A stretch of DNA of 64,000 bases from contig CAWFOU010000007.1 in the NCBI GenBank assembly GCA_963817525.1, positions 960,001 to 1,024,000 on the forward strand, given 5' to 3'. A model generated the notes under the pieces. It saw only the letters and a list, made by a program, of their open reading frames with translations. It did no database searches and was not told where the DNA came from. Of this stretch, positions 28,407 through 45,630 are shown in pieces. This stretch comes from an uncultured archaeon. GTDB lineage: Archaea; Thermoproteota; Nitrososphaeria; Nitrososphaerales; Gagatemarchaeaceae. The position numbers and the translations under genes were made by a program. Numbering within the stretch: the first letter of the stretch is position 1; the number at the start of each line of letters is the position of its first letter.

Positions 28407-28638
28407 AGCATGCTGGTGCGGTGCGGCATATAACGTCTGGGTCCAGACCCGGGGAAGTGTGGACCGGGGGGGACTCGGCCGATTATTCGTCTGAGTCTTC
28501 GGCATCCGATGCCCAAAGACCCATCGCTCGCAATTATATCTAGAGCCTGAGATAAAAAGGTCACGGTCGCGGATTCTGCTTGATTAAGATACATGGATTC
28601 CTAAATATTGATAAGATGCGACCAGAACATTCGTCTCG

Positions 28639-29187
28639 TTGTCTCAACGAAGGGAACGAATTAGGGCGGGCCTTAACGTTCCTCACGTTGAGCAAGGCGA
28701 AGAGGAATATTACTGCGTCCCTGCGTGTATCAGCATGGTAGTTCGGTTCCACGTTGAGACTATGGGGGCGGAAATACCGAACCCTCCTGTTTCCGAGCTA
28801 GCGAGCGCTATGGGAACGGACGCATCAGGCACTTCTCTTAACGACGTTGTGAGGGCCAACCGGACACTTCGGGGCCGTTCTCACTTCTTGGAACTTAAGC
28901 CAAGAAGGAACTGCGAGTTTCGGGACATCAAAAAGCAAGTTCAGGAAGAAGGAAGGCCCGTTATAGCATGGATTAAGCCGCACAGGGAAGACCGAATCGG
29001 GCACTCAGTAGTCGTCAAGGAAGTTGACCCTTCGGGGTTAAAACTGACTATTGATGACCCTGCTAGAGGCGAATGGGTGTTAGAAGTGACCGAGTTCCTT
29101 CGGGTTTGGGGAAACTCCCACTACGTTTTAATCGAGGCGACGGTGGACAACAAGCCTCCGCAATCGGATTTACGTGAATTTGAATGA
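28639..29187 (+). CDS. C39-like cysteine peptidase
   Basis: VPHVEQ..YCVPACISMV, GRPVI, GHSVVV, IDDP (Q-C-H-D). Confidence 0.85.
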   Translation: MSQRRERIRAGLNVPHVEQGEEEYYCVPACISMVVRFHVETMGAEIPNPPVSELASAMGTDASGTSLNDVVRANRTLRGRSHFLELKPRRNCEFRDIKKQVQEEGRPVIAWIKPHREDRIGHSVVVKEVDPSGLKLTIDDPARGEWVLEVTEFLRVWGNSHYVLIEATVDNKPPQSDLREFE

Positions 29188-30110: not shown

Positions 30111-30514
30111 TTAACCAAATTAGGCAGTGGGAAAGGTTGAGACTCAAAGCAACCCAAATCGTCATAACTATCGTAGTCATTGCGCTAGTGGGCGGCGGCG
30201 CAATTCTTCTTTACGATGAGACGTCGGGGCCGTCTGTGAGTTCCAGCGTGTCCACAAATGCTAGCTTGGTAAGCGAGCTGGATTGCTTTGGAAGCAATGC
30301 ATATACTACTGTCGCGCTCCGTGTAAACTCAACCTCAACCTCCACCTCTATCACGACTTATTCGGGACCTGGCGAGATGGAATTTGATTATCGAACTAAT
30401 ACGACTGTGGCCGCGCCTGTCGGTACCGTAGTAACTACAACCACTACTTTCGCTTCCAGCTCGGGCAACGTGGTTTCAGAGTGGGAAGCCGTAACCTGCA
30501 CTTACGTGAAATGA
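30107..30514 (+). CDS. Membrane-anchored Thr/Ser-rich protein
   Basis: GTGA overlap with the previous stop; N-terminal TM. Confidence 0.65.
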   Translation: MINQIRQWERLRLKATQIVITIVVIALVGGGAILLYDETSGPSVSSSVSTNASLVSELDCFGSNAYTTVALRVNSTSTSTSITTYSGPGEMEFDYRTNTTVAAPVGTVVTTTTTFASSSGNVVSEWEAVTCTYVK

Positions 30515-30526
30515 CAAGATATCGAC

Positions 30527-30853
30527 TCATCTAGGCTTCTTGACGAGCCTCTTCTTGACCCGGTTCTCCCACTCATGATAGTCAATCAGGCCGCGCTCTT
30601 CTAGCAGTTCGGCGAGAGAGGTTATCATGTTGTCCTGCATGTCAAGCTCGCCCGCGAGGTTATCCGTTGAGATCGACCCGGCCTTCAACGGTCGGCCTTC
30701 TGCGGCCCCTAGATACCCCTGCATGGTGAGATACGCGATGACGATGTTCCTGATTACTTCGGAGTCTCCGTCGCCAATCTTTCCCTTCATCTCAGCGTCG
30801 ATGATTGCCCATAGGCCTTCTGGAAGAGTGACTAGCGCCCTTCTCCGAGGCAT
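30527..30853 (-). CDS. Ribbon-helix-helix/CopG-like regulator
   Basis: MPRRRALVTLPEGLW..DSEVIRNIVIAYL; TGATG coupling to the transposase stop. Confidence 0.75.
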   Translation of the reverse strand: MPRRRALVTLPEGLWAIIDAEMKGKIGDGDSEVIRNIVIAYLTMQGYLGAAEGRPLKAGSISTDNLAGELDMQDNMITSLAELLEERGLIDYHEWENRVKKRLVKKPR

Positions 30854-31731
30854 CAGGCCCTTACCTCCACTTGGACCGCCCCGGCCTTCTCCACGACCTC
30901 TTGAATCGTCTTCTCCGCCGTCGCGTTCTGAATCAGTTGCTTCCAGCCTTTCATCTCTATCCCTGCCGCCTGCGCGGGGGTCTTCCCGATACTTGAGTGC
31001 GTCCGACAGAAGTTGTAGTTCACGACGTAGCCTTCGAGAAGGTTCTTGGGATTCTTCAGGCCCCGCATCGGCTTCACTCTGTCCTTGAGCGTCCCATGAA
31101 CTCGCTCCACTATGTTGTTGGTCTCCCTCGCTCGAATCCCGACCCTTCTCACCCACTCGACCTTGTTCCCCTTGTATCGGGTGTAGAAGACTTTCTTCAT
31201 CGCCTCGTCGTATGCGAAGGAGCCGTCGGTGTAGAAGGCCGTCGGCCTCTGCTTCTCAAGGGCCTGTGTGAAGACCTTGATTGCATCCGCGCTCGTCCGC
31301 GAGTTGCTAACCATGCTTGCGACTATGAACCGAGTGTCTTCGTCGATGGTCTCCCAGAACCACTTCTCTTCTCCGCCGACCTTTATCGCCGTCTCGTCGT
31401 GGTGATACTTGCCTCCCAACTTGGGCGCGAGGGTCTTCACGAACTCGCTGACCATCTCGCCATACTTAGAGACCCAATACCAAACCGTAGAGGCGGCAAC
31501 GGTCTCGCCGAAAATGTCTCCGAGCTGTCTCTGAACCTTGCGAGTGGAGAGACCGTCATAGTAGAGGTTCAGCGCCGTCACGATGACATGCTCGTTCACC
31601 CTCATTCGAGCGAAGGAGACATGGTTATCGTAGAAGTGGTGAGAGCAGTTCTTGCACTGGAACCTCTGGACCCCCATCTTGACCCCGTGTTTCACGACTT
31701 TTTCCGACCCGCAGAACTTGCATGCGTTCAT
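30853..31731 (-). CDS. IS6-family DDE transposase
   Basis: CKFC..CKNC Zn finger, HHDET, IDEDTRF, YTDG, NNIVERVHGTLK, YNFCRTH. Confidence 0.93.
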   Translation of the reverse strand: MNACKFCGSEKVVKHGVKMGVQRFQCKNCSHHFYDNHVSFARMRVNEHVIVTALNLYYDGLSTRKVQRQLGDIFGETVAASTVWYWVSKYGEMVSEFVKTLAPKLGGKYHHDETAIKVGGEEKWFWETIDEDTRFIVASMVSNSRTSADAIKVFTQALEKQRPTAFYTDGSFAYDEAMKKVFYTRYKGNKVEWVRRVGIRARETNNIVERVHGTLKDRVKPMRGLKNPKNLLEGYVVNYNFCRTHSSIGKTPAQAAGIEMKGWKQLIQNATAEKTIQEVVEKAGAVQVEVRA

Positions 31732-32256
31732 TTGCCAACAGGGTGTATATTGGCATTAGACCTATTTATATCCATTGTATAGCCAGTTGATATCCATGTA
31801 TCTTAATCAAGCAGAATCTCATAGTTCGAGCTGCCGTGGTCGAGACGACGCCCTGGAAGAAGGGCCGGAAGGACTGACGAACCGCTAACCAACACGCATC
31901 TTAGCGAAACCAACTACATCCTTACCACGCCGCAATCCAACTGAAGAGCCGTGAAAGTACTAATTCTTCATTCGCCCTAGCCGTGGTAACGGTTGACCCA
32001 GTCATTCACAGGGGTCGTCCGGCCTTGGGTCGGTCCGCCTTCTAAGCAAGTATCCCGTTGGCGCGAGGCCACCACTCGCTTGCGAATCCAGCCGATTGCA
32101 CTTGTATTACATTGTAAGCCATTGCTATATTAGCACGGGCATCACAAGAACTTGCGATGGGCTTTCAGAAGTTGCTTGCTGCGTTCCCTCTAATCCTCCT
32201 GTCGATTGGGATGACGAGCATTCCGATTGCAGCCGGCTTGACGACAGGATTTCGAT

Positions 32257-33300
32257 GTGGTGTATCCAGTCCCGGGTGGAATCTTGGACGGTAAACGCAC
32301 GCTAAGAAATGCATCGGTATGCGTATTGCTTTTGCTCATTGTGATCTCTCCAACTGCAATTATGGCCTCCGGCGACTCAACGAATGCAACAATGACCGCA
32401 AAGGAATACGCAGCGTACATGAATCAGACCCCTACCCCGGGTCCCGGATGTTGGGAGAGTAACTATCCGAACACAACTTGGTTGTCGGTACCTTGCAGCC
32501 AGCCTGACTACCCTGTTCCGACTGTCGGTGGTGGAACGGACGACTATGCCGACTACTCAGGCACGTCAAATGTTGGATGGGCACAAGGCGACTTTTCGAG
32601 CGTATCCGGGATAACTACAGAGGCCGACAGCGGCAATCCTTGCAGCAATTCGAACGGCACGGGACATTGTTCAGACTATTACAGTCTCCAACTGAACACC
32701 AACAGCTGGACATGCACGCCTCCCAGCGGTCATTCGACGACGTGCTGGGAGCAGTTCGTCTACACTGGCGCTAAAACTGTTGGAAATGTCGCGGTCTGGT
32801 GGTACCTTCCGGGTTATCACGGTACTTGGAATAACTGTCCAACTGGTTTCTCACAACCAACGGGTTACCCGAACGATTGTACTGACACCACCAACATTGG
32901 CGTTACACACGCGGACCCGCCAACGACGAAGCTTGGGTCCATGACACTTACCGGTCAGGCCAACTATGAGGGCAGCGGAGATGATGAAGCCTCAATGTGT
33001 GATGGAAATGGTTGTTACGCCGCGACCACCACGGGGTCTATCCTTGGGCTGTCTAGCAACTGGACCATAACTGAATTTAACGTACTAGGGTATGGAGGCG
33101 GGACTCAGGCACAATTCAACACGGGGAGCTCACTTACAGCAGAAATCTTCGAATATGACCACAATGGCAACATGATATCCCCAACATGCACGACTAGCAT
33201 TGGGTCAATAGTTACCGGGGAAACAGCCAACCTAAGTTTGGGTACTTGCACCGCCGTCTCTCCTCCGCTGGCGCACATCTCCTTCACTGAATCACACTAA
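32257..33300 (+). CDS. Secreted Cys-rich protein, thermopsin-like motifs
   Basis: Signal peptide; YSLQLNT, CWEQFV, EFNVLG, TGE; homologous to the N-terminal domain of 47736-50846. Confidence 0.75.
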   Translation: MVYPVPGGILDGKRTLRNASVCVLLLLIVISPTAIMASGDSTNATMTAKEYAAYMNQTPTPGPGCWESNYPNTTWLSVPCSQPDYPVPTVGGGTDDYADYSGTSNVGWAQGDFSSVSGITTEADSGNPCSNSNGTGHCSDYYSLQLNTNSWTCTPPSGHSTTCWEQFVYTGAKTVGNVAVWWYLPGYHGTWNNCPTGFSQPTGYPNDCTDTTNIGVTHADPPTTKLGSMTLTGQANYEGSGDDEASMCDGNGCYAATTTGSILGLSSNWTITEFNVLGYGGGTQAQFNTGSSLTAEIFEYDHNGNMISPTCTTSIGSIVTGETANLSLGTCTAVSPPLAHISFTESH

Positions 33301-33341
33301 AACATTAATAGCGATAGGATGTATTGCGCCGTGAAAAAACA

Positions 33342-33926
33342 ATGGCCAACGGCAGAAAGGCGCTCGCGCTTGTCGCGATTGTGATTCTGGTTGTAGGCGC
33401 CCTCAGCGTTTACTCCATTGTGGCGACGACCAAGTCGGTCGGACAAGGAAAGACAATCTCGTCGCTTGAATCGACGCTGAGTTCGATGGATTCACATCCG
33501 TTCATTTCTGTGAGCACTACAACGATCACCCTTTCTTCGACGGACACTCGACTTCCTTCTTTCCCATGGAACAGCAGCGCCGCGCAATATATGGCCGGTG
33601 CGAACTTTTGCAATGCCGGTTATGAGGGAGCTTGTTTCTCTAGCGCGTTCAGTAATGCTTACGTGTTCACTTGCCTCAACCAAGCCGCGACTCCACAGGG
33701 GTGCACGGTACGAATGAACGCGACCAACTCGATATCCTTCGTCGTCGTCACGGTCTGGTATCCTTACTACAACTCGACTGCGGGTGCGCCCGCTTGGGCA
33801 GATTGTGCTTGGAATAATCCCGGAGGAGGGGGTCCCAGCCAGTTCTATGCTGCGTTTGCATCCTACTGCTTCAAATTAGGTGGAAACGCCTTCATACTTA
33901 CCTCTCCACCTCTTCCCACAGCTTAG
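33342..33926 (+). CDS. Membrane-anchored Cys-rich protein
   Basis: N-terminal TM; NAYVFTC..QGC..YPYYNST..WADC..YC; homolog of 50848-51405. Confidence 0.75.
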   Translation: MANGRKALALVAIVILVVGALSVYSIVATTKSVGQGKTISSLESTLSSMDSHPFISVSTTTITLSSTDTRLPSFPWNSSAAQYMAGANFCNAGYEGACFSSAFSNAYVFTCLNQAATPQGCTVRMNATNSISFVVVTVWYPYYNSTAGAPAWADCAWNNPGGGGPSQFYAAFASYCFKLGGNAFILTSPPLPTA

Positions 33927-34123
33927 GGACCTTGGTGCTGTTCTCCATCACCTTGAATTCATGGAAAGCCCTTTGTATTGCAAATATAACGAGTCCAAGC
34001 CGACAACTCTAGGCTGAGACTCGTGAAGATATTGCGGAAGGGCAATCGTGGCTCTTGGACATGCGTCCCCCCTCGTATAGGCGCTGAAGTATCCAAAAGT
34101 GATTTTGCCTTGAGAAGGACTTG

Positions 34124-34672
34124 CTATTGGCCTTGCTTGGAAAAGCGAATCTTCAGTATGTTGCCCTTGACCTCTATCTGGAGTTTCCCTCTCGACAGAA
34201 CTTCGTAGGCCCCCGAGATATAGCTCTTCAGAAAATAGGACCACTTCTCACCGTACCCGTGGCGCAAGGTCATTCGTTCTGAGTTCTCGGACACGTTTCC
34301 TTCGACCGTGAACCACCCACCTACCTCCGCAAGTATGCTCACCAAGAACTCAACGAACGTCATCTGGCAGCCTGCGCTCTCCAAAAGTTCGAGCACCAGA
34401 GAATAGTTCTTCTTGCCCAGCGCGAACCCGTCCACTTCCAAGGAGTCGAGGTTCGCCGTGCTCATTATCGAAGCAAAGGTCTCACAGCCGAGCGCGATCC
34501 TGCCCAAGGCAGGAATCAGTGGATCGACCTTCAACGCTCTGGTCAGGACTTGCGCCACGTACATGTTTTCGCTGACATGAAGCCGTCGTGCAGTGCGTGC
34601 AAGCTCGAGTGTTAGACGCTCGTCAAGCCGGAACGCCTTGACTTTGGTATGGCTCGCCGTAGCCATTTCCAT
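34124..34672 (-). CDS. Hypothetical protein (RHH-like N-terminus, V4R-like C-terminus)
   Basis: KVKAFRLDERL..VSENMYVAQVL; LRHGYGEKWSYFL. Confidence 0.7.
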   Translation of the reverse strand: MEMATASHTKVKAFRLDERLTLELARTARRLHVSENMYVAQVLTRALKVDPLIPALGRIALGCETFASIMSTANLDSLEVDGFALGKKNYSLVLELLESAGCQMTFVEFLVSILAEVGGWFTVEGNVSENSERMTLRHGYGEKWSYFLKSYISGAYEVLSRGKLQIEVKGNILKIRFSKQGQ

Positions 34673-35345
34673 GAAAGAAACAGAGGAATCTCAATGCAGG
34701 TTCTATTTAGACTTGCCGTATTCACCGCAAAAATACAGCTTGGTGAACATTATTGCGTGAATCGCAACCGCGTTCCAATGTCACATTTCCTACCAGCAGG
34801 ATACCCAAGGTCGTCTTCACGAGCGTGCGCTCTATTATCTCGTCGGGTGATTTGGGCGATTCGAGAGGGGCATAGGTCGCAGGAAGATTTAAGGTTGACT
34901 GGATGAGTCAGGAAACTTGCGCAATTATCGTCTGGAAAGGTAACGACCCTAAACCCAACGAGGGCGTAAGAAGAGGAGACAACCTCATTGATTTTGTCAT
35001 AGGTTAACAATGCTGAAGAATAAAAATTGCGGTAAGCGTTTACCGTTATGAAGTTCCACGGTCAATATTCAGCTTCTGACGCTCATTTTAGCGACATTTC
35101 CATCACGAACTTCGGAACGGTAAACGTGTACAAATTGCGGAGTTCTTTAGAGTTCCCACGCTAGAGGCTCGCGGTTCCCGTGCAACAGCGAACGTCTGGC
35201 AAGTACTCTCCTAGAATCTTCCTCTGTCCTCCTGCTCAGCTTTTCTGCGTCGGCGGCTCCGGCTTACGCGAGAATGAATTGCGTCCCTTCTGGGCGCCTC
35301 GAAGGTATCTATCCTTTTGACAGTGTGTGCGCTCCCTGCCAAAAC

Positions 35346-35480
35346 CTAGGAGGCGAGCTTCCTGCTCCTCATGGCAAGATAGCCAGTTGCGATGGTGAAG
35401 ATCACGGCGACTACCGCTACTCCATACAGTAGGCCCGAGCTCACTCCTGTGGAGGATGTGGACGTGATTGTAGTTGCCCT
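35346..35480 (-). pseudogene. Orphan C-terminal membrane-anchor fragment
   Basis: ATTITSTSSTGVSSGLLYGVAVVAVIFTIATGYLAMRSRKLAS* with no upstream body. Confidence 0.6.
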
Positions 35481-36417
35481 TCCAGGTCAGCCTTCACCTG
35501 GAGAATGGTTTCCTGGAGAGGCTAATGGCAAGGCGGGCAGCCTCTGCCATCAGTATTGACCTGGAAATCGGTCCAAAAAACACACAAGGGGGATGGTATT
35601 AACTAACCCGCAACTCTCTACCGTCCTCTGTCTCCGGCTTCGCGTCATTGGCGCTATCGCAAGCCGATCAAGCTATGGTCGATTTGCTCATACCCGCATC
35701 AGAGGCATGTGATGCCCACCTGAGCGAACCTCTTACGACGCGTTCGAGTGCCTTGTGCCACCATCCACAACCATCCGCGGCTGGGACTAAACTGAGACCA
35801 GACTCCTTACCACGACACGCCAGCTCATTTCTGCCGGGCAGGGACGGATGTGCTTCGACTCAGATGAGCTTGTCCTCAGCTTGGCGAGCGCCCGCTCCGT
35901 CCGATTGTTGGCTTCGTGGCTGACGACCAGGACCATCGAGGTACTCGAGGGCGATAGCTACTTCCAAGTTGAAGAAACCGCGGACGCCAGGGCAGTGCCC
36001 CCTAAGGCTCATTGTCAGGGCGTCGAGGTCGACCGGAGACTTGGCCATCCTCTTCGAAAACCGATAATGCAACCCGGGTCCAACGAATCTCTTGCCCGGC
36101 TCAGCGTGCAAGGGCCTTTCGGTCCACAGTCGTTCCTCAGAATGCAGCAATCGCGCAGCTCTGCCGCTTGGGCATAGCCGAAGCCACTGCCTCTGGGACG
36201 GCACACTCCTACTGGAGTGGGCCTCTGTTTTTGTTTTGGGGGGGTTACTTTTTGCTAAGAATAGCAGTGGAGAAGTAGGCGGGTCTATTTAACGCGGCAA
36301 AATCGGGACCATTCCTATCGCGTTTTCCATAACCTCGGACACAGCCGAACCTAGCATACCTTGAGTTGAGAGCCAGTCAAGGCCTAACGACGACGCAAAA
36401 GCGCCGTTATCGAAGGC

Positions 36418-36780
36418 AAAGCGGACATCTTCAGGGGTCTGGACGGCGCCAAGGCGGACATTCGGGTCGAAAGTGGACATCGGGAGGCGGTTCTGACGGT
36501 GAATGTGGACATCAGGGGTGCCAAAAACGGGTCGCGGTTGCAACATCCATGTCCACCTTCGCGCGCCCAGGGGCGGCAAATGTCCACCTTCGGGCGGTCG
36601 GCGAGGGCGGAGTGGTCGTCGATGTCAACCTTGAGATCCAAAGGCTTGAGATCCAAGGGCCAGGCTTGACATTTTGGGCTCCAAGGTTGACATTTGTGGT
36701 TCGAAGTGAAGGACAGCTTCACGTGTCCACCTTGCCCCGGTAATGGGCGTGCAATGTCCACCTTCATGGATGTGGACATG
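36418..36780. repeat. 12 copies of a 12-bp motif AAGGTGGACATT in both orientations
   Basis: Copies at 36418, 36451, 36470, 36502, 36548, 36579, 36621, 36662, 36683, 36722, 36753, 36769. Confidence 0.85.
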
Positions 36781-36817
36781 GGTCGCTTCGGGGCAGGAGC
36801 CAACCGAGGGGGCTGCT

Positions 36818-37337
36818 AATGCTCGACCCTCGAGCATTATGCATTTGGAGTAATGCGCAACCCTTGCGCACTAGCGCCTTCATGGCAATACGCAACCCTT
36901 GCGCATTAGGCAACCCCGTCTTCTCGGGAAACGCATGATTTGGCACGTGAGGAATGTCTGTGGGACCTGCGAGGCTTCTCGAACGCACCCGTTCACGACC
37001 AATGCACAACCCTTGTGCATTAGCTCGCTTGGGCAAAGGCACAACCCTTGTGCATTGACCAGTCCGAGAGGTTTCACCCCGGCCTCCGCAAAGCTGTACG
37101 CCAAGACCCGTTCCACTATGGAGCGTAACTTTTGAAGATCAAATCGGGCGGGTCCGGCAGTCGCATCATATCATGGGGCTAAGGGTGCTAGAGCTCCCCG
37201 TTAACCAGGAGGTGCAGGATTTGGTGGATACAGGGGAAAATCGATGACTTGTACGAGACACTCACAATTCTGCTCACGGCTGATGCCCAACCCTTGGGCA
37301 TTGCGGCGCATGGGATAATGCCCAAGCCTTGGGTATT
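36818..37337. repeat. 21-bp palindromes AATGnnCAA-CCC-TTGnnCATT at 34-35-bp period
   Basis: Copies at 36818, 36852, 36887, 37001, 37036, 37282, 37317 (plus 38787 and 38822). Confidence 0.9.
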
Positions 37338-37734
37338 GGCTAGCCCTATACGGCCACCGCCCACGTTCCGCCGATGGTAGGGCCAATCCTAAAGCATCCT
37401 CTTGAAGGGCGACGCCCCGCGCAGCTTTACCTGCCGATCGAGAAGCAGCGTGCCAGCGTCGACGTCGAACCGGCCTATCCGCCAAAGGCCAGTGCTCTTG
37501 ATGAGGCGTGCGCGAGCTGAGCGAGAGGTTCGCCTCGCGAGAACCCTATTTTCAGTTCAAGCACTAAAGGCGAAAAGGGTGCGACTGCCGATCTCTCGAT
37601 GAAAGCGTACGATGTCGACCTTCCCGGTGTTCTCTGAAGAAGACAGAAACTGTCGCGAGAGCGAAAGGTGGCGTAGGAACCGAACCCCGAAGAACGATTA
37701 GCTTAAGCCCGATTCGTTCCAGGTTACCGCGCAA

Positions 37735-38193
37735 TTGTCCGGGGATCTCAAATCAAGAGTAAAGTTGCCTGAAGGGTTCAGATTTCTGCGCGAGGGCGAC
37801 ATAGAACGACCATTTCGGACCGGCGACAAAACGATGGACAAGTATGCGCTCAGAGACTACCACGCTTGGAGCCTCCTGCCCAACGAGCTCGTGATCCTGT
37901 ATGAGGTCGCAGGTGATGTTGCGGGCATAATAGAGATGACGGTCGACGAAGACCACATAATGATCGAGATGGTGGCGCGGAACACCCTAGTTGCGGCTTC
38001 TGGCGTTGGGACAAGACTCATGAGCCTCGCTGAAAATGTCTCGAGGCAGCTGGGCAGGAGCGAAATCCGATTGGAATCCCTTGACGGCGTGGTTGCGTGG
38101 TATGACGGGCCTCTGGGGTACGAAGAGTACACCGAGAGATTCTACGATCCTGAGTTCGGCTGGCTGACCCCGAAGAGGAAGTTCATGCGGTGA
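37735..38193 (+). CDS. GNAT-family acetyltransferase
   Basis: IEMVAR..GVGTRLMSLAE..IRLESL..VAWY..LGY. Confidence 0.8.
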   Translation: MSGDLKSRVKLPEGFRFLREGDIERPFRTGDKTMDKYALRDYHAWSLLPNELVILYEVAGDVAGIIEMTVDEDHIMIEMVARNTLVAASGVGTRLMSLAENVSRQLGRSEIRLESLDGVVAWYDGPLGYEEYTERFYDPEFGWLTPKRKFMR

Positions 38194-38410
38194 CCTTGGC
38201 CTTCTGCCTCATCTTGCCTATGACCTTTCGCGACACAGCGTAGACGCCGGTATCTGGGTCGGACCTCACGATGTCCAGATAGTGCTGGACGACCTTGTGC
38301 TCGCGCAGGTAGTTGTCGATCACGCGGGACTTGTTGACTCCCTGGGCTATCGCCATGCTCTCCAGAGCGTCATCCAGCTCGTCAGTCAGCGAGATTGAGA
38401 TTTTCCTCAT
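38183..38410 (-). CDS. Ribbon-helix-helix protein
   Basis: MRKISISLTDELDDALESMA..VNKSRVIDNYLR; ATG at 38410. Confidence 0.85.
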   Translation of the reverse strand: MRKISISLTDELDDALESMAIAQGVNKSRVIDNYLREHKVVQHYLDIVRSDPDTGVYAVSRKVIGKMRQKAKVTA

Positions 38411-38786
38411 GCTACCACGGTCATACTCTGGTAGCAGAGCGCTATATAATCTTGCCGGGAGTCTCTTCCGTTGATTCCCGAATGGACCTTGGCTGAGGCC
38501 AGAGATTCCTTTGCCAAAGAGCCGAAAGAAGAGCAGCCGAGGGAGCCAAGGGGCAAACCATCGGAGAGAGTGTTCTCGAAGGTACTCACAGCAGAGAAAC
38601 ATCGACAACTTTGGGAAGACTGCTTTCAGCGCCCAACGAGCTGTGTCCAGATTGACTCCGCGAGGGCTGCGCCAAGGAAGGGTCTGGCTGAGTACCCCTG
38701 TTTACGAAAGCGAAGATGGGCCTTCCTAGCTTCTAGTCGCAATCTTTCTCGCCTCGTTAGACGCCCAGAAAGCAACTCCTCAGACT

Positions 38787-38842
38787 AGTGTGCAACCCTT
38801 GCATATTAGCGCCTCTAGGGCAATGTGCAACGCTTGCACATT
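38787..38842. repeat. Further pair of 21-bp palindromes
   Basis: agtgtgcaa-ccc-ttgcatatt and aatgtgcaa-cgc-ttgcacatt, 35 bp apart. Confidence 0.85.
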
Positions 38843-39152
38843 AAGCTCGCATGGGCTCATGAGCAACCATGAGCTAATGAGGGTGATTCGCAAGCAGCCA
38901 AACGTCTCGCGAGGAAGCCAGAGGCCGAGCCAAGGACTCGGGAGGGAAAATCGGTCCAAAAAAAATAATGAGAGGAGATAAGAGAATATCCGCAACGAGT
39001 CCGTGCGACCATTTCGACTCCCCCAAAATGAGCGGCCTCGACAGCCGCCGCTAGTAACGGTCGGTCTCCGATTCGTCGGTTTCGGTCAGTTCAGAGAGAA
39101 AATAAATTTAGACAGCATCAAACACCACTGGAATATTTAACGGCCCACTGTC

Positions 39153-39283
39153 AGCTTGCCAAGCCTCCCACTAGGTTGCCACTCAAAGTCCTCCATTTGG
39201 CAACCTCATGACTCATTTTGGCAACCTGTCTCCTCGATTTGGCAACGTTGAATGGCAAGGTTGCCAAAACTAAATGGCAACCT
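39153..39283. repeat. Iteron-like TTTGGCAACCT repeats
   Basis: Direct copies at 39196, 39217, 39238 (21-bp period) and 39273; inverted copies at 39153, 39173, 39258. Confidence 0.85.
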
Positions 39284-39399
39284 GGGTTATCCTCCCGAAA
39301 TGGAGGAGACAGCCCAGAGCTGTCCCACTACCTGTCGAACTTTAGGAGTTAGAGCCTCTTGTTAAAAGCTCCAGACCACAGGGAAATCAGGAAATCGAA

Positions 39400-39618
39400 A
39401 TGGACTCCCGTAACGATGGCTCTGTCGACCTGCGACCATTCAAGGAGAAGCTAAAGAAAAGACTGCCATCCGAGAGTTTCGTCCTGATTGACCTCCTCAA
39501 CGAGCCGGATTCGATGCCGTCCACCCGGGCCGAGGTCCTGATCCCCCACTACCTCCAGAGACTGGAGAGAGAGCTTGAGAAGTACGAATCGAAAGGGCCT
39601 CTCGTCTTGAAGGCCTGA
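39400..39618 (+). CDS. Small hypothetical protein (possible directionality factor)
   Basis: 72-aa ATG ORF convergent with and abutting the integrase stop. Confidence 0.7.
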   Translation: MDSRNDGSVDLRPFKEKLKKRLPSESFVLIDLLNEPDSMPSTRAEVLIPHYLQRLERELEKYESKGPLVLKA

Positions 39619-39619
39619 C

Positions 39620-41041
39620 CTAGGCCGTCCTCAGCCCTATCACAACCTTCTCATCGGGCAGGTCCCGCTTATAGTCCCACCCCTGCTCTATCCACTGCTC
39701 CAGCTCGCCGATGGGAACGACCTTCTGCGTCCCCTGCTTGAGCCCCAGCATCTGTTTGGACTTTTCGTGGATAAGCTCCTGCAGCTTCTCCAAGGTGAGT
39801 TGCGTGACGTCGCCCAACGCTTGGATCTCCGCTTCGGTGTACCCGAACATCTTCAAAGCCTCGACCCTCGCGGTGTTCACAACCTCGTCCCTGCTGATCG
39901 TGGGCTGGGCGAGCGTCTCGAGGTGCTTCGCGGCGGCCTGGGAGTAGGCTTGCCTCATCCTCTCCGCCACCTCCTTGGGCAGCCCCTTGTTCACGCTGTA
40001 CACCGACTCGATGTTCCCCACGTGCCCCATCCAGAACTCCCTCCACTCCCTCAGGATCAGCCTCTCGTACTCCGCGTTCATCATGCAGACCTCGAAGTAC
40101 CTCCTGAGGACGTACGGCCTCCAGGTGAAACCGGCGGCCACGATTGCCTGTTTGAGGCCGACGCAGACCTTGTTCGTGCTGATGTAGCTAGACTTTTGGT
40201 TCTTGATGGCCCCTATGAGCGGAGATTCGGGCGTCAGCTTCTCTCCCGGTAGGCGCACCTCCTCTAGGACTCCCACCCTCTCCCTCCCGTGGGACCAGGT
40301 CTTCCTGGTGTACACCTTCGTCCGCATCCTCCACTCGAGGTAGTTCTTGAGGTACTGACAGGCCTCCGGGGGAAGGAACACAAAGTAGGTGTGCCCCGCC
40401 TTGCTTATCGCCCTCCTGCACACCACCTGGGCGGGCGTGTTGAGGAAGGAGACCGTCCCTCCCACCGCGTTCCCGGCCCCGTCGAGTAGGTTCTCGATCT
40501 TGAGGTCGGGGAAGTCGGCCAGCTTGAGCCCGTCGTCCCCCACCATGTTTCCCTGCACCTCGGGCCTGAACCCGCAGAAGGCGATGAGGGAGATCGAGAC
40601 CTTGGCCCTGATGTCGGCCACGTCGAGTATCCTCCTGAGCTCCTGGCGGGTGGGAGGCACCTCGTTCTCGTACTTGTTGTAGTCCGAGGCGCCGTAGATC
40701 CTGATGCTCTTGGGCGTCTCCATGTCGTTCCAGATCATCCAGCTCTTGACCGCCTTGACGTAGCCCTCGATGCCGGAGCCCTTGATCCCCTTCTTCTCAA
40801 AGTGGGTGATGAGGTCGTGGAGGAAGAACTTGGCCTGCTTCGTGTCCATGGTGACCAGCTCCTTCGGCGTGACCTTCAGCTCCTCGCAGGCGTAGGAGGC
40901 CTTGCGGAAGTAGACGGAAGCGGTCGTTATCGAACCGCGCTCCAGCGCCTCCACCCACCTCCTGAAATTCTCGTCCTCCCCCAGATAGTGGAAGTAGGGC
41001 GACTTCGCTAGACTCAGACTCCTCATCTTTCCATTTCTCAC
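39620..41041 (-). CDS. Tyrosine recombinase/integrase (intact)
   Basis: GFRPEV (R), PYVLRRYF, FWMGH, VYS (Y); adjacent to the att site and tRNA. Confidence 0.93.
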   Translation of the reverse strand: MRNGKMRSLSLAKSPYFHYLGEDENFRRWVEALERGSITTASVYFRKASYACEELKVTPKELVTMDTKQAKFFLHDLITHFEKKGIKGSGIEGYVKAVKSWMIWNDMETPKSIRIYGASDYNKYENEVPPTRQELRRILDVADIRAKVSISLIAFCGFRPEVQGNMVGDDGLKLADFPDLKIENLLDGAGNAVGGTVSFLNTPAQVVCRRAISKAGHTYFVFLPPEACQYLKNYLEWRMRTKVYTRKTWSHGRERVGVLEEVRLPGEKLTPESPLIGAIKNQKSSYISTNKVCVGLKQAIVAAGFTWRPYVLRRYFEVCMMNAEYERLILREWREFWMGHVGNIESVYSVNKGLPKEVAERMRQAYSQAAAKHLETLAQPTISRDEVVNTARVEALKMFGYTEAEIQALGDVTQLTLEKLQELIHEKSKQMLGLKQGTQKVVPIGELEQWIEQGWDYKRDLPDEKVVIGLRTA

Positions 41042-41108
41042 CTGTTTGTTGCTTTTGGTGAGCGACAGGCGCTTTAAGGCGGGGCGGGGACTCAGACGAA
41101 TAATGGTG

Positions 41109-41219
41109 TGGACCGGGGGGGACTCGGACCCCCGACCTGTCCCAATCTGGACTCTTGGTTTGCCAAGGGATTGGACGACGAATAGTCGTCTCTATCCTAC
41201 CAAACTAGACGACCGGCCC
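41109..41219 (-). tRNA. tRNA-Ala(GGC) with two introns (27/28, 21 nt; 37/38, 16 nt)
   Basis: GGGCCGG/CCGGTCC-A stem with G3:U70; both introns form BHB motifs; 74-nt mature cloverleaf. Confidence 0.9.
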
Positions 41220-41417
41220 TCGGGGTCGTCTACAATAGAGCCGTTAAAAGAATTTCAGAATTCGACTAGTTTGCCGGACTTTCAGGAAGCTACCGTGTGC
41301 CAGCAAAGGCGCAACCCAACAAGGCATCGAGTGGCGAGTCGACCCGGATAGAATACCTGAACACCGTGACGCGTGGTCCCTTACAATCAGCAGGCAGATA
41401 AGGGCGCTTTCTAGAGA

Positions 41418-41897
41418 TCAGAGCTCGTCGATGACACGGAATGGCACAGCCGGTTTTTGCCCGATTACCTCGACGACTTCTGTCCACACGACTTCCCTGA
41501 TGCCGTCCATCGCCTTCAGAATCTCCTGCATCTCCAGGATTTCCGAGTTGCCTTTCACCACCGTCTCCACCTTCAAGTCAATCGTCTGCTCCCCTATGCT
41601 CCTGCCGACGTAGACGACGTCGTCCCGCTTGAGAAGCTCTTCCGCAATCTCCGTGGTCTTTCCATGCTCTGTTGCAATCAGGAAGTCCACCTTCCGCCAG
41701 CCGAACTTCTCTAAGTCCATGGAATAAGTCACCTTGAGAAAGTCCGCCTCCAACCTTTTCCGTCTTCTTTGGACCGTCGTCGCAGGTATCCCCAGCTTCT
41801 TTGCTATCATCGCTGAGGTACGATGCCCATCAGGCGTAAGGATGATCTTCAACAGCTTTCGATCGACCCCAGACAACGACCCAGACCTCCTAGCCAT
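41418..41897 (-). CDS. Lrp/AsnC-family regulator
   Basis: Paralog of 42-515 (VVYVGRSIGE.TIDL). Confidence 0.85.
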   Translation of the reverse strand: MARRSGSLSGVDRKLLKIILTPDGHRTSAMIAKKLGIPATTVQRRRKRLEADFLKVTYSMDLEKFGWRKVDFLIATEHGKTTEIAEELLKRDDVVYVGRSIGEQTIDLKVETVVKGNSEILEMQEILKAMDGIREVVWTEVVEVIGQKPAVPFRVIDEL

Positions 41898-42024
41898 TCA
41901 CACCAGTCCGTCCGGTGGCTTTTATGCCCGGAAAATATAAGTTAGATGGTCGAAACCTCTATTCTGAGGAGAGAAAAGTATAAATTAGTCAAAGCGTCTA
42001 ACGTCACAACTAGGTCGTGCGGTC

Positions 42025-42264
42025 TTGGAAGCCTCAAAGCAGGGGAATGACGCCTTGAGTGAAATCCTGAGGAGGTTCGATGATGCAGGATCAATGACAC
42101 TTCGCGATGCATACAGGGAGAACCCAACGCAACCTTGGACGGAGTTTATGAACACCGTGGACAGTCTGGTTTCCCAGGGCTTCTTGACTGCCAAGGGAGA
42201 CGGGTTCGTCGTCAAGTACTCCCTCACGAGCAAGGGCAGAAATACAATCGGCCTCGCTCGTTGA
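42025..42264 (+). CDS. Small winged-helix-like protein
   Basis: VDSLVSQGFL..YSLTSKGR. Confidence 0.6.
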   Translation: MEASKQGNDALSEILRRFDDAGSMTLRDAYRENPTQPWTEFMNTVDSLVSQGFLTAKGDGFVVKYSLTSKGRNTIGLAR

Positions 42265-42371
42265 GCCAATCGCCTCGGGGAATTCCCGAAGGCTCCGTAA
42301 GAATCATGAGTGTCTGTGTCCCTTAGGACTCTAAGCACCCCTCTAAGTATGCGCGAGTCGTAAAGCACACC

Positions 42372-42506
42372 ATGTTGACCGAGCAAACGACCGGTCTTTG
42401 CGGCAGATGTGGAAAGGGCACTCACCTCGAGGGCCCGATTCGTGTCTGCAACGGCTGCGAGCGTGTCTCCAGCGCCTGCAGTTGCACTGCCTCCCGGGGG
42501 TGGTGA
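42372..42506 (+). CDS. 44-aa Cys-rich microprotein (not in ORF track)
   Basis: MLTEQTTGLCGRCGKGTHLEGPIRVCNGCERVSSACSCTASRGW. Confidence 0.6.
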   Translation: MLTEQTTGLCGRCGKGTHLEGPIRVCNGCERVSSACSCTASRGW

Positions 42507-42743
42507 TGAGAGGGCCAGAATCGCGCGCTAGGGCACTGCCACAAGAGACCCAACAAGAGTCGGGCCGTCATCCGCGCATGAGTATCACAGGATTCTCCTT
42601 AGACGAAGGTGGCATCGCCGGTTCTCTGAAGGCAGAGTTGCACAAATCGGAGGGCTCTCTGGGGGATTCGTTCCAAGGAAACACCAAGATTTCATAACAA
42701 TGTTCCATAACCTTGAAATAATGAACCCGCGTTCTACCCAGCT

Positions 42744-43031
42744 ATGAAGTACCGCAGCAGGACAGAAATCATCGAAGCATTGCTGCAGTCTGCGATGAAC
42801 GGCGCAACAAAGACGAGGCTGATGTACAGCGCATACCTCTCGTATGCGCAGGTCCAGGAGTACCTAAAGTTCCTCACTGGAAAGCAGCTTCTGTCGTTCA
42901 CAGAGGAGACGCAAGAGTACAAGCTCACCGAGCAAGGCCTTCACTTCCTCAGGACATACCGTGAGATCAGCGAAGTGGTTGCTCTTCCGGGAAGCAAGCC
43001 TGATAACGATGCGTACCCTTATGCGCGCTGA
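42744..43031 (+). CDS. Small winged-helix protein (DUF4364/ArnR1-like)
   Basis: MKYRSRTEII..TKTRLMYSAYLSYAQVQEYL..YKLTEQG. Confidence 0.88.
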   Translation: MKYRSRTEIIEALLQSAMNGATKTRLMYSAYLSYAQVQEYLKFLTGKQLLSFTEETQEYKLTEQGLHFLRTYREISEVVALPGSKPDNDAYPYAR

Positions 43032-43379
43032 ACGCTTAGAACGCCACGTTTCTTAGCGCTTGTGAAAAAAGTACCCGTTCATCTGTCATGATTTGACAGA
43101 TGAGCAGCGTCTTCCAGACCTACGCCAATCTGGGGCCCCGTATCTCCTCTGCTGGACGAAGAACATTCCGTGATGAGCATCGTCTGGTTGCTCGTGGTAT
43201 GGCTCTAGGGCAAGACAACCCGGATATCTGAGAAGGGGTGACTATCTTCCCTCGATCGTGCGTGCCCCATCCAACGCCTGAGTAGATCATCCGAAATCTT
43301 GGAAGTCTGCGCCCGCTGGAATAATCCACCGGTGCCATGACAGCATAGCAGATAAGCGATGATGGGATAGGAGATAGCG

Positions 43380-43529
43380 TTGGAGAACGAGGAGCCGGAT
43401 CTTATCACTTGCGATGAATGCTCCGCGGTGTTCAAGACTCCAATCGAGTTGGAGAATCACAAAGCGAGGCGACACGTCATTCCTGAACAGCCAGAGGCGG
43501 CGGTTATGCCAGGCTCGCATGAGGATTGA
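43380..43529 (+). CDS. 49-aa C2H2 zinc-finger microprotein (not in ORF track)
   Basis: TTG start; CDECSAVFKTPIELENHKARRH. Confidence 0.65.
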   Translation: MENEEPDLITCDECSAVFKTPIELENHKARRHVIPEQPEAAVMPGSHED

Positions 43530-43747
43530 AATCGAACACTGCAAGAAATCTCGCCATACGCCCGATCAGCTAGCTAGGGCGCCACGGAGCCACCGGTGTA
43601 ATCTCTGCACCCCGCGACTGAACTCCGAGTCAGCGGAAGTTGCGATTCCTAACAATCGCAGGCGAGATTCTTCGCTAACCCTCTTTATGCCAGAAAGCCA
43701 TTTGCTCCCGGTTTGACCTTTTTGGAGGGCCCGGAATTGATTAGCGA

Positions 43748-44788
43748 ATGAAGACAAAAAGGCGAATGAGGACAAAAAGGGCAATGCTGATCATAAATCC
43801 GATGGCTGGGCTGGGGAAGAGAAAGCAGACTCGGGGTGCAAGCAGGGCCGAAGTCGCAGGCGCGGTCGGTGGCCACAAGGAGCCCGCTGAGGAGGTCATC
43901 GAGGCGGTGGCAGAGGAATGCGCACGAGCCAGGATGAAGCTGGACGTGGAATTCACAAAATATCCTCAACACGGGATGGAGATTGCTAAACGAGCGAGGG
44001 GTAGGTACGACTTGGTCATCGCCGCTGGGGGCGACGGGACGATAAACGAAGTCATCAACGGAATCGCCAACTCCCGAACGATATTGGCGATAATCCCGAT
44101 CGGCACGGTCAACGTCCTCGCCTTGGAACTCGGGATACCCCTGAACGTAAAGGAAGCATCTCGGTTGATCATGGATGGACAGACTGTGGCGATCGACCTC
44201 GGCTATGCGGAGACGATGGATGAGTCAAGATACTTTTCCTTAGCTCTCGGTGTCGGTCTTGATGCGCTCGTGATGAAGGACACGACCTTAGAGTTAAGGA
44301 GAAAGTGGGGGGGCCTCGGCTATTTGATGACCGGAACCAAGCAGCTCATGACCTACAAATGGCCAAGAATCAGCATCAATCACTCGGTCACCTCAACTGG
44401 GTATTTCGTTATTGTAGCCAACTCTAAACACGTCTGGGGCGATCACCAGCTGGCGGACGACGCCAGTATGACAGATGGCCTGCTGGACCTTGTGGTAATC
44501 AACAGGAAAGTCTTGAGTGCAGTAGACCTGCTACTCACCTTCTCAAAGGGAAGACTCAACAGATACCTCCGGAAGGAATGCTATCAAGTGAGGCGGGTAG
44601 AAATCACCGCCGAGAGCGAGGTCGTCGTCCAGGCTGACGGCGAGATAATCGGGAGAGCGCCGCTCAAGGTCTCGGTAGTACCAAAGGCCTTGAGAGTCAT
44701 CGCGAACAATGGGATTCAGATAGAGGGCCTGGATTCCCGTGAGAATCGCCAGGAAGGGAGCGTCCCAATTCCTGCTTTGGAGGCATAA
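43748..44788 (+). CDS. Diacylglycerol-kinase-family lipid kinase
   Basis: IINPMAG, AAGGDGTINEV, IPIGTVN, QADGE. Confidence 0.92.
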   Translation: MKTKRRMRTKRAMLIINPMAGLGKRKQTRGASRAEVAGAVGGHKEPAEEVIEAVAEECARARMKLDVEFTKYPQHGMEIAKRARGRYDLVIAAGGDGTINEVINGIANSRTILAIIPIGTVNVLALELGIPLNVKEASRLIMDGQTVAIDLGYAETMDESRYFSLALGVGLDALVMKDTTLELRRKWGGLGYLMTGTKQLMTYKWPRISINHSVTSTGYFVIVANSKHVWGDHQLADDASMTDGLLDLVVINRKVLSAVDLLLTFSKGRLNRYLRKECYQVRRVEITAESEVVVQADGEIIGRAPLKVSVVPKALRVIANNGIQIEGLDSRENRQEGSVPIPALEA

Positions 44789-45464
44789 TCTTCCCGGACA
44801 CTTTGAACCAACCGGACGCGAGGTGTGAGAGCACGCCGACAGACAGATTCTTTGAACCCTCTGCGCGAGTCGTCCTTGCTTTGATGGCGTCCCTGAGCTC
44901 GCCGTCAAACACAGTATAGGCCTTGCCGATGTCGAGCAAGATGTGTGCATCGCTCGAGCCAACTGCAGCTACGGGTAATTGCATCGCTATCCTTGCTGCG
45001 GCGTCGTTTGAGGAGTCAGGAGTTCTAGAATTGATCGTCTCGATCGCGTCGATCTTTCCGACGAGACTATCTAGAGGATACCTGAACGTCTGCATCGGCC
45101 TGAATGGGTGAGGTATGACGACAAGACCGTCTTGGCTCTTTATGTCAGCGATGACTTTCAACAGGTCTCTCTCTCTGACTTCCTCCTCGATGAAGAGCGC
45201 TATCACATCTCCCTTGTCCGTGGTGACCTCCTCGCCTATGATCACCTCAAAATCCTTGTCTTTGTTGAGTTCCTTCGTCACAAGCGCGCCTTCGATTGTG
45301 TGATGGTCGGTGATAGCGATCCCATTCAATCCGGCGCGCTTCGCATCGTGTAGGAGGTCCGCAGGTTTGTTTCTGCTGTCCGGGGAAAAAATGGTGTGCA
45401 TGTGCAGGTCGAATCGTTTCATCTTCACTCCCCTGTCGCCCGTGTTCCTCATCTCGAGTCGCAA
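44697..45464 (-). CDS. PHP-domain phosphoesterase
   Basis: DLHMHT, AITDH, IGEE, PHPF, GSSDAH. Confidence 0.92.
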   Translation of the reverse strand: MRLEMRNTGDRGVKMKRFDLHMHTIFSPDSRNKPADLLHDAKRAGLNGIAITDHHTIEGALVTKELNKDKDFEVIIGEEVTTDKGDVIALFIEEEVRERDLLKVIADIKSQDGLVVIPHPFRPMQTFRYPLDSLVGKIDAIETINSRTPDSSNDAAARIAMQLPVAAVGSSDAHILLDIGKAYTVFDGELRDAIKARTTRAEGSKNLSVGVLSHLASGWFKVSGKIMPPKQELGRSLPGDSHGNPGPLSESHCSR

Positions 45465-45630
45465 TTTAAGCCTGGCAAACCTTGCCTTCAGAGGAATGTA
45501 TATTCAGGAACGGACATCGTGCAGCCCGAAGGAGGTGGTTCTACCGGACTGGACGACCGGCCCGAAGCCCCGCCTGCCTAATTTTCCGGGAGTTGAACAA
45601 CGCGCGGTCTGCGCGAAAACTCGACGAGCG

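Follow-up and report, generated by a model that had tools for sequence, protein, structure and literature searches.

What is an array of nearly identical palindromes, whose arms change in step with each other, doing in an archaeal chromosome where no obvious binding protein is encoded beside it? The question is raised by a stretch of 64,000 nucleotides (hereafter the window) from an uncultured archaeon of the Gagatemarchaeaceae (GenBank assembly GCA_963817525.1, contig CAWFOU010000007.1; C7:960001-1024000 in our numbering), whose genome of 2.82 Mb is held in 15 contigs and is 95% complete. An original prediction, made from the letters alone, had described nine palindromes in the window as a triplet and three doublets with a 34-35-bp period and five inner-arm variants, and had offered two interpretations, namely selection on pairing in single-stranded DNA (ssDNA) or RNA, or a panel of sites for different allelic binders. 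Every element of that description is present, and our results favour the panel of sites and not the selection on pairing. The palindromes are a real, strongly constrained family of sites with a plausible protein partner, the product of a gene that we call cl5, and the window carries an unusual, multi-variant ‘orphan’ array of them. With moderate confidence, we propose that the palindromes are centromere- or operator-like sites in duplex DNA, that cl5 is their likeliest binder, and that the window array stands without its cognate gene.

The palindromes in the window

Nine 23-bp palindromes with the consensus TAATGCNCNA-CCC-TNGNGCATTA and a CCC-type centre on the + strand lie at 36817-38843. They are listed here by the first and last base of each 23-mer, with the inner part of both arms.

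36817..36839, + strand: P1, GCTCGA/TCGAGC, 10/10 arm matches
36851..36873, + strand: P2, GCGCAA/TTGCGC
36886..36908, + strand: P3, (A)CGCAA/TTGCGC, doublet with P2
37000..37022, + strand: P4, GCACAA/TTGTGC, the variant of the site beside the genome’s only cl5 gene (C7:1258892-1258949)
37035..37057, + strand: P5, GCACAA/TTGTGC, doublet with P4
37281..37303, + strand: P6, GCCCAA/TTGGGC
37316..37338, + strand: P7, GCCCAA/TTGGGT, centre GCC, doublet with P6
38786..38808, + strand: P8, GTGCAA/TTGCAT
38821..38843, + strand: P9, GTGCAA/TTGCAC, centre CGC, doublet with P8

The sites thus form one triplet and three doublets, with start-to-start spacings within groups of 34, 35, 35, 35 and 35 bp. Five inner-arm variants are represented: GCTCGA/TCGAGC in one copy, and GCGCAA/TTGCGC, GCACAA/TTGTGC, GCCCAA/TTGGGC (partly TTGGGT) and GTGCAA/TTGCAC (partly TTGCAT) in two copies each. 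Two palindromes have deviating centres, GCC and CGC. The pattern ATGNNCAANCCTTGNNCAT, with up to two mismatches, has 13 matches in the window (the nine sites, four of which are read on the other strand too), compared with a mean of 0.21 and a maximum of 2 in 100 shuffles. The linkers between palindromes are 12 bp long, or 13-14 bp if the palindrome is counted as 21 bp, and are partly conserved (GCNCNTTTGGGC); the earlier remark that they are too short for a CRISPR array, in which unique spacers of ~26-72 bp are found, was correct. No TATA-like motif was found near the window doublets, and a structural, centromere-like role therefore fits them better than a promoter-operator role.

Compensatory changes within palindromes and shared variants between neighbours

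Pooling all sources gave 171 instances of the palindrome in 128 distinct contexts, with 71 distinct 23-mers; two outliers were dropped, which left 69, drawn from 60 sources and selected by a palindromy filter of 8 of 10. In this set, 92.5% of the cells are paired and the covariation score reaches 0.321; the corresponding values in shuffles are 83.6% and 0.150, and none of 500 shuffles attains the observed score. In slid controls, only 23-36% are paired. Pair 7:17 uses all four Watson-Crick pairs (TA 21, AT 15, GC 14, CG 12, other 7), double changes are also seen at pairs 5:19, 6:18 and 9:15, and seven of the ten stem pairs have double-sided changes. In a control set of 63 distinct 23-mers chosen by left arm and centre only, pair 7:17 is Watson-Crick in 52 (TA 21, GC 11, AT 10, CG 10), and 53 of the 63 have at least 8/10 arm matches, the remainder being mostly chance genomic matches. 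Four arm positions (C8, A10, T14 and G16) are invariant in all 69 distinct sites, and the centre is CCC in 56 of them.

The arrangement of the sites is similarly regular. Of 54 distinct pairs of adjacent sites, 47 have a period of 35 bp, five of 34 bp and two of 36 bp, and neighbours have the same variant (positions 7 and 9) in 37 of the 54, where 2000 shuffles give a mean of 9.7 and a maximum of 19. The mirror substitutions and the sharing of variants within doublets, both of which had been claimed for the window, are therefore real and far above chance. We also considered the pairing between the two palindromes of a doublet as the selected unit. Inner-six mismatches number 22 and 25 within a palindrome and 37 and 47 between the arms of neighbours; pairing between neighbours is the worse of the two, which points to the single palindrome as the constrained unit. 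Template switching in quasi-palindromes, together with conversion between neighbours 35 bp apart, could copy changes across arms and sites, and a possible neutral contribution of this kind would soften the reading of the variants as a ‘barcode’.

A winged-helix gene precedes the palindromes at other loci

The simplest context of the family is found outside the window, at one of the six loci of the same genome (C7:1258892-1258949) and at 11 metagenome loci. There, a single-variant doublet or triplet directly follows the stop codon of cl5, a gene of 125-145 codons (C7:1258460-1258885 in this genome) whose product is predicted to be a winged-helix protein; at some loci the palindrome opens with the TAA of the cl5 stop codon. 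A TATA-like CTTTTAT box follows the doublet at a distance of 16-130 nt, and the ATG of a small, leaderless Zn-ribbon gene comes ~30 nt after this box.

Homologues of cl5 with 28-65% identity occur at 26 loci in 18 of 97 genomes of the family, and 24 of these loci have at least one palindrome within 300 nt after the cl5 stop. In an association scan of 29 loci, for which a palindrome was defined by 9-nt arms with at least eight matches, a palindrome lies within 153 nt after the stop at 26 loci, against two with one within 153 nt before the start and one with a palindrome inside the gene. The association spans homologues of 28-77% identity when the 18 genomes and the metagenome loci are taken together. 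Across cl5 clades the core persists (CAA-GGG-TTG, CGA-GGG-TCG and similar); clades differ in their outer arms and in spacing (23, 26, 32, 34-36 or 82 bp). In the clade closest to the resident cl5, the arms are TAATG...CATTA as in the window, and the variant tracks cl5 residues 36-38, as follows.

Residues NRM: GCACAA (this genome and metagenome locus L054)
Residues EST: GTGCAA
Residues DKS: GCTCGA/GCTCCA
Residues DPK: GTTCCA
Residues KPA and NRN: GCTCAA
Residues QGD: GCGCAA
Residues HKN: CCCAA type

These correspondences come from ~9 related loci, with two others (L074 and L080) left out, as the cl5 frame is cut short in both. Several of the variants in the window equal sites beside other alleles of cl5 in other genomes. 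The ParB-like genes upstream of the two NRM/GCACAA loci belong to different subclades with 53% identity, and variants differ among loci that share a ParB-like subclade; from the former it appears, in a few related loci, that the variant follows cl5 rather than the ParB-like gene.

Modelled from a 29-sequence alignment (pLDDT 65), cl5 runs through helix, strand, helix, helix and hairpin, and residues 36-48 form the third, or recognition, helix. The best Foldseek matches are all winged-helix proteins (MarR-like at E 0.006, then GntR, IclR, PadR, Sso10a, SSV1 F-93 and TubR), and in VIA-align residues 1-85 reach Z scores of up to 10.5 against winged-helix domains, which supports a predicted winged-helix fold. 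The arms of the palindromes differ along with the start of the predicted recognition helix.

The gene order Zn-ribbon protein, ParB-like protein, cl5, palindromes is kept, so that cl5 is the third gene of its operon. A ParB-like gene lies directly upstream of cl5 at 31 of 33 loci and a surface protein gene is nearby at 25 of 33. The model of the 391-aa upstream protein (pLDDT 84) is ParB-like, matching Myxococcus xanthus ParB at E 4e-7 as well as Noc, Spo0J, KorB and PadC over ~220 columns in Foldseek; the protein also matches the pNOB8-like ParB-N domain at E 0.0099 and has a C-terminal Zn-ribbon beta domain. The 376-aa protein encoded before it has an N-terminal Zn ribbon and no match in Pfam, PDB or ESM Atlas. 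PHROGs, Pfam, NCBIfam and PADLOC yielded nothing useful for the operon proteins beyond a stray JetB match for cl5 (E 0.0085). On the other strand, a 766-aa protein appears by eye to be secreted, rich in N-glycosylation motifs and anchored by a C-terminal membrane segment; ESM Atlas held no usable match for this surface protein.

The cl5 operon lies in regions of Gagatemarchaeaceae-type thaumarchaea that resemble integrative and conjugative elements (ICEs). In this genome, cl5 and a TraG/VirD4-like gene are 15 kb apart, and 10 genomes have the two on one contig at distances of 11-28 kb; a gene of this kind is present in 15 of 18 cl5-positive genomes compared with 38 of 97 overall. The ICE-like region near the end of C7 (C7:1273501-1275906 and surroundings; L145 and L146) encodes TraG/VirD4-like, TFIIB-repeat, ThiF-family, insertion sequence (IS) transposase and PIN proteins, and copies of genes related to window positions 34011-34591 are found in the same region at C7:1235616 and C7:1244600.

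cl5 as the likeliest binder of the palindromes

Under the interpretation that we favour, each palindrome would bind one dimer and two neighbouring sites would be the working unit. The binder would be cl5, the third gene product of the Zn-ribbon/ParB-like/cl5 operon, rather than the ParB-like protein or another factor, and the variant would be set by residues 36-38, with which its recognition helix begins. At ICE loci, one to three palindromes of a single variant would serve as sites between the cl5 stop and the promoter of the next gene, while the window has sites without the protein genes, as an array of doublets in five variants that lies in a control region poor in open reading frames (ORFs), beside a second kind of iteron. 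Without a cognate gene nearby, the window array may act in trans. Repeats beside the genes of candidate binding proteins, as expected of a centromere, are seen at the ICE-type loci (palindromes after cl5 in 26 of 29, a ParB-like gene in 31 of 33); inside the window, cl5 and ParB-like genes are absent.

Several points weigh against this proposal. The element in the window has no cl5, and a profile search finds one cl5 gene in the genome, which has at least seven site variants. In genome G201, window-type arrays keep TAATGC arms even though the resident cl5 sites read CGTGCTCAA, so the coupling of resident protein and array is not strict. The correspondence of residues and variants is confounded by common ancestry among its ~9 related loci, and an orthologous structural hairpin would also diverge together with the adjacent gene. 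Near-equal use of the four base pairs at 7:17 is a classic mark of selection on pairing, and a period of 35 bp does not amount to an integral number of helical turns. The best Foldseek matches of cl5 are at E 0.006-0.04, with none at or below E 0.001, and the confidence of the model is middling; binding by cl5 is itself a prediction, and the ParB-like protein, with a helical DNA-binding region of its own, may be the binder instead. Finally, a ParA-type ATPase was not seen in the operon by Pfam or by a pattern for the Walker motif, and no Walker A, tubulin or actin motif was found by pattern among the operon proteins; these searches covered the operon itself.

All three window-type arrays in this genome include a GCACAA doublet, which is the variant of the resident cl5 site. 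GCACAA is also the commonest variant overall, which tempers the match. Conjugative elements of several specificity types may make use of the arrays in trans; alternatively, the arrays may titrate them or be bound by something else. A more specific version, which we put forward tentatively and consider somewhat doubtful, is that of ‘borrowed’ sites, in which small non-conjugative elements carry at least five site alleles, each matching a different specificity type of the winged-helix/ParB-like system of conjugative elements, and are acted on in trans. The proteins of a co-resident conjugative element would then segregate or transfer the small element or, alternatively, the array would titrate those proteins and destabilize a competitor; the variants would represent a specificity code common to two classes of archaeal mobile elements.

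To our knowledge, almost nothing is known of the maintenance or movement of mobile elements in mesophilic soil archaea, and we know of no DNA site described so far for the ParB-like genes of thaumarchaeal conjugative elements. Our findings propose such a site, a partner winged-helix protein, and a set of naturally occurring protein-site variants from which a recognition code, three residues against two base pairs, might be deduced. If arrays in gene-poor elements do act in trans, they would represent a case of one archaeal mobile element exploiting or jamming the segregation or transfer proteins of another. The palindrome family is, in addition, a handy marker for such elements in metagenomes.

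Comparison with known partition and regulatory systems

In layout, the palindrome system resembles two described partition systems. The centromere sopC of plasmid F is reported to consist of 12 direct 43-bp repeats, and SopB binds a 16-bp inverted repeat that is contained in each of them (PMC3177203). The cl5 loci likewise have tandem repeats of fixed period, each with a short inverted repeat, directly after the operon of the putative binding protein, and a ParB-fold protein is encoded in the operon too. They differ in their 35-bp period, 23-bp palindromes and only two to three copies at the protein-encoding loci, in that no ParA-type ATPase was found in the operon and an extra winged-helix protein is the likelier binder, and in the multi-variant arrays of gene-lacking elements and the archaeal hosts. 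In the AspA-ParB-ParA segregation cassette of the Sulfolobus plasmid pNOB8, AspA is described as a small dimeric protein of winged-helix type that recognises a 23-bp palindrome, taken as the centromere, and has an atypical ParB as its partner (PMC5120986). The match of the 391-aa protein to the pNOB8-like ParB-N domain and the occurrence of both in archaeal conjugative elements are points of likeness. In our loci, however, the site is after the winged-helix gene and not before it, the order is Zn-ribbon, ParB-like, winged helix with no ParA found in the operon, and the sites are 35-bp doublets in many variants.

According to Krupovic et al. (2019; PMC6563490), thaumarchaeal ICEs typically encode a homologue of TFIIB immediately before a ParB-like gene. 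The operon described here similarly has an N-terminal Zn-ribbon gene before the ParB-like gene, in regions with a VirD4/TraG-like gene. It differs in that the passages of that paper on the gene pair mention neither a winged-helix gene nor a palindromic site, palindromes, iterons and inverted repeats coming up in the paper only in unrelated senses, and in that its upstream protein is not confirmed as TFIIB by Pfam, PDB or Atlas searches.

The AbiEi-type operators share the repeat length, being 23-bp inverted repeats, and those of the Mycobacterium tuberculosis homologue are paired with a 13-bp gap (PMC7319586). AbiEi/AbiEii-like genes are near 13 of our loci. We rejected the palindromes as operators of an AbiEi antitoxin, given that the AbiEi-like genes carry other AT-rich repeats in their promoters and that the arrays lie on either side of them, at variable distance and in no fixed relative orientation. 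Repetitive extragenic palindromic (REP) sequences and REPINs are also short extragenic palindromes in pairs; the family described here, however, has only 25 copies, which are confined to six loci and always sit inside related mobile elements. The RAYT domain PF01797 is unmatched in this genome (95% complete), with positive controls in 6 of 14 genomes, and we rejected a REP/REPIN-RAYT system.

Alternative explanations

The palindromes could be duplex sites for a factor other than cl5, such as the ParB-like protein (parS-like sites), a replication initiator (origin iterons) or a host protein, with the adjacency of cl5 being incidental. We consider this unlikely. ParB, Noc and KorB bind short palindromes, and the alignment of the ParB-like model with these proteins includes their helical DNA-binding part. 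A second cluster of iterons adjoins the array in a conserved, ORF-poor region of 3 kb, as in plasmid origins, and the single cl5 gene for seven variants would also fit another binder. Against a ParB-like binder, the same GCACAA variant and NRM residues recur at two loci whose ParB-like subclades are only 53% identical, and different variants occur within one subclade. A replication initiator is opposed by the lack of any recognised replication protein in the element, and a host origin motif is unlikely because the GTGGACA clusters and the palindromes are absent elsewhere in the chromosome.

Less likely still, in our view, is that the palindromes act as hairpins in single-stranded nucleic acid, either as an RNA element, such as a signal for 3′ ends, processing or stability or a small RNA, or as an ssDNA hairpin or cruciform with a role in replication or transfer, so that pairing rather than the identity of the variable bases is selected. 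The double-sided changes at seven of ten stem pairs and the four pair types at 7:17 are what this explanation predicts, and by ssDNA folding each 23-mer in the window reaches -3.3 to -8.9 kcal/mol (z-scores -2.5 to -10), with -16.4 kcal/mol for a doublet folded as one long hairpin. The palindromes at ICE loci start at, or a few bases past, a stop codon, and orientation within arrays is uniform. A hairpin formed from one strand should, however, tolerate only one of G·T and A·C mismatches, whereas the non-Watson-Crick cells (G·T 33, A·C 28, other 24) have no strand bias, and at pairs 5:19 and 6:18 both one-step intermediates of GC-to-AT changes occur. The centre reads GGG on the sense strand of the gene in most cl5 loci and CCC in four to five others (L106, L107, L108, L117 and one L112 site). 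A symmetric dimer on duplex DNA would be indifferent to such a flip, and together with the near-equal mismatch counts this favours duplex, dimer-bound sites over a hairpin from one strand. Sequence conservation extends over four arm positions and the centre, a 3-nt loop closed by an A-T pair is weak, and a search of 34000-42000 against Rfam on both strands gave no match at E values up to 1. Same-variant neighbours would be needless under structural selection on single hairpins, and pairing is poorer between neighbours than inside a palindrome. Selection on pairing in ssDNA or RNA, the other half of the original interpretation, is accordingly not what we favour; hairpins or cruciforms arising from both strands are possible. 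No T-run follows the palindromes at 13 doublets of this genome and 12 ICE-type loci (by inspection), and we rejected intrinsic terminators, which are G+C-rich hairpins with a T-run in bacteria and oligo-T signals in archaea.

Recombination sites for the neighbouring tyrosine integrase, as a lox/FRT-like core made of the inner arms of a doublet and the 12-bp linker or as an integron-like cassette array, are very improbable: integrase genes or fragments do lie 0.5-2 kb from the arrays in the window and at C7:101406 and C7:142742, and the arms flanking the linker do form inverted repeats around an asymmetric, partly conserved spacer, but the att repeats of the element are elsewhere, in a tRNA-like gene, ICE-type loci hold palindromes with no integrase nearby, and successive sites differ in variant, which would block recombination between them. 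Integron attC sites in particular were rejected, as the palindromes are 23 bp long compared with 55-140 bp for attC, and the gaps between the groups in the window are 114, 246 and 1447 bp with genes only in the last, so that the ORF-free stretches of 114-246 bp are not cassettes.

The element carrying the array

The array lies in a cryptic element of 12.6 kb (~28479-41105) integrated at a tRNA-like gene, with a tyrosine integrase gene beside it. Its main features, with its ends and target, are as follows.

28457..28478, + strand: left att-like direct repeat at the left end of the 12.6-kb element, 22/22 identical to 41106-41127
35550..35622, no strand assigned: 73-bp block with a AAATCGGTCCAAAAAA core, 91-95% conserved among related elements (similar block at 38862-38997)
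36146..36428, no strand assigned: non-coding block, 75-82% conserved among related elements
36456-36513: further conserved block
36473..36778, no strand assigned: seven iteron-like GTGGACA/TGTCCAC motifs in both orientations, directly left of the palindromes
37735..38193, + strand: GNAT-family acetyltransferase, a cargo gene between palindrome doublets
38183..38410, - strand: ribbon-helix-helix (CopG-type) gene
39620..41041, - strand: tyrosine-recombinase-like integrase of 473 aa, without a Pfam match
41106..41219, - strand: tRNA-like gene, probably intron-containing, the integration target, with a weak Rfam tRNA-clan match and 88-90% conserved in two relatives

ARAGORN called no tRNA at 41106-41219. 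The 3′ part of the tRNA-like gene (41106-41132) is repeated exactly at 28457-28478 (22 bp) and at 24140-24165 (26 bp), and the three copies suggest that two elements integrated in tandem. The right one, ~28.5-41.1 kb, carries the palindromes; the left one, ~24.2-28.5 kb, has a 269-aa integrase paralogue at 27696-28505, which overlaps the middle repeat and has a weak PHROG integrase match.

The recognisable genes of the palindrome-carrying element encode a C39-like peptidase, an IS transposase (IS240-type DDE, 30853-31731), two secreted proteins, and the GNAT, ribbon-helix-helix and integrase proteins listed above. No replication or partition gene was recognised in it by Pfam, PHROGs or NCBIfam, and PHROGs, NCBIfam and PADLOC gave nothing useful for the unknown ORFs of the window. 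Before the ATG of the ribbon-helix-helix gene, at 38411-38450, a TATA-like ATTATATAG box and the inverted repeat GCTACCA-N11-TGGTAGC can be seen by eye; the repeat is probably the operator of that gene and unrelated to the palindrome family.

About 3 kb of the element (34.7-37.7 kb) has no convincing ORF and contains blocks that are 75-95% conserved among related elements. Several ORF clusters over this region translate repeated DNA motifs and look spurious, and a coding role for 36146-36579 (a 96-aa ORF on the minus strand) was rejected because homologues differ by indels of 1-2 nt. Clusters of GTGGACA occur in this genome only beside palindrome arrays. To the right of the last doublet, TTGGCAAC-type repeats at 39189-39246 add a third iteron type to the control region, and arrays of the motif give rise to long spurious ORFs in related elements. 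The segment 35322-35474 has repeats of 76-86% identity at a dozen or more places in this genome and in relatives; its minus strand resembles, by eye, the C-terminal membrane anchor of secreted proteins, and it may be a gene fragment.

One metatranscriptome run (X14) covers 7% of words, with contigs at 35875-36075 and 38428-38720 and partial matches at 35347-35429. None of the contigs is on the palindromes; contigs can show neither absence nor strand, and the run is therefore evidence neither way. Very deep RNA contigs of the same run match only 34-38 nt of 35322-35474, with mismatches.

Related elements of this genome (C7:142 kb, C8:19 kb and C7:90-103 kb) have little protein content in common beyond integrase homologues, and their most conserved part is the non-coding region. 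A segment of 1564 bp is 99% identical between C7:139116-140679 and C8:15166-16729, while its flanks are only 83-86% identical; it could be a recent conversion or a mobile unit, and its 444-aa protein has no match in Pfam, PHROGs, NCBIfam, PADLOC or PDB.

The palindrome family in this genome and beyond

The genome holds 25 copies of the family at six loci, all in tandems of 34-36 bp, and within each locus the C-rich centre is always on one strand. A generic genome-wide scan for similar palindromes in tandem at 31-38 bp recovered only these six loci and one second family with a 36-bp period, which adjoins two of them (C7:95369-95441 and C7:100919-100955; L094:11362-11452 and 16909-16975). This second family comprises TGTGGACA-AATGC-TGTCCACA and TTATGGAC-AGATGCC-GTCCATAA types and has mirror changes of its own, and it shares motif kinship with the GTGGACA cluster at 36473-36778.

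When 201 genomes of the order were scanned with a strict pattern, the family was clear only in this genome and in G186 of the same genus (four sites); the other 25 matching genomes have mostly single matches with 1-2 mismatches, which are chance-like. A looser doublet pattern gave ten matches in GTDB, seven of them in records of Candidatus Gagatemarchaeum stordalenia or ‘Thaumarchaeota archaeon’; the remainder comprise one contig of a metagenome-assembled genome labelled Acidobacteriota, with homologous flanks, and two chance-like matches. Among 45 metagenome loci that fit the looser pattern, 40 passed the filter as carriers of family palindromes; the other five, like the bacterial records L041 and L048, were rejected as degenerate-pattern matches without a family palindrome. 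No match to the family pattern was found in viral contigs. Across homologous arrays of elements with ~80% identity, the order of the variants is kept: TCCA/TCGA type, GCAA, ACAA, CCAA, GTGCAA.

The uncultured Acidobacteriota record L044 has one family palindrome and matches of 75-92% to window positions 35553-35628 and 36146-36428, and is either a mis-binned thaumarchaeal contig or a transfer.

Other features of the window

To the right of the tRNA-like gene, 41220-45697 encodes Lrp-type and HTH_45 regulators, a diacylglycerol-kinase-like protein and a PHP protein. In two genomes of the same genus (G118 and G174), the homologue of 41108-41219 is only ~110-220 bp from the homologue of 45698-46000, which belongs to a pyrophosphatase gene, and on account of this short spacing the 4.5 kb in between look like a further insertion. 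At the far left of the window, positions 1592-3136 encode a protein with an ice-binding-like domain (Pfam E 7e-42).

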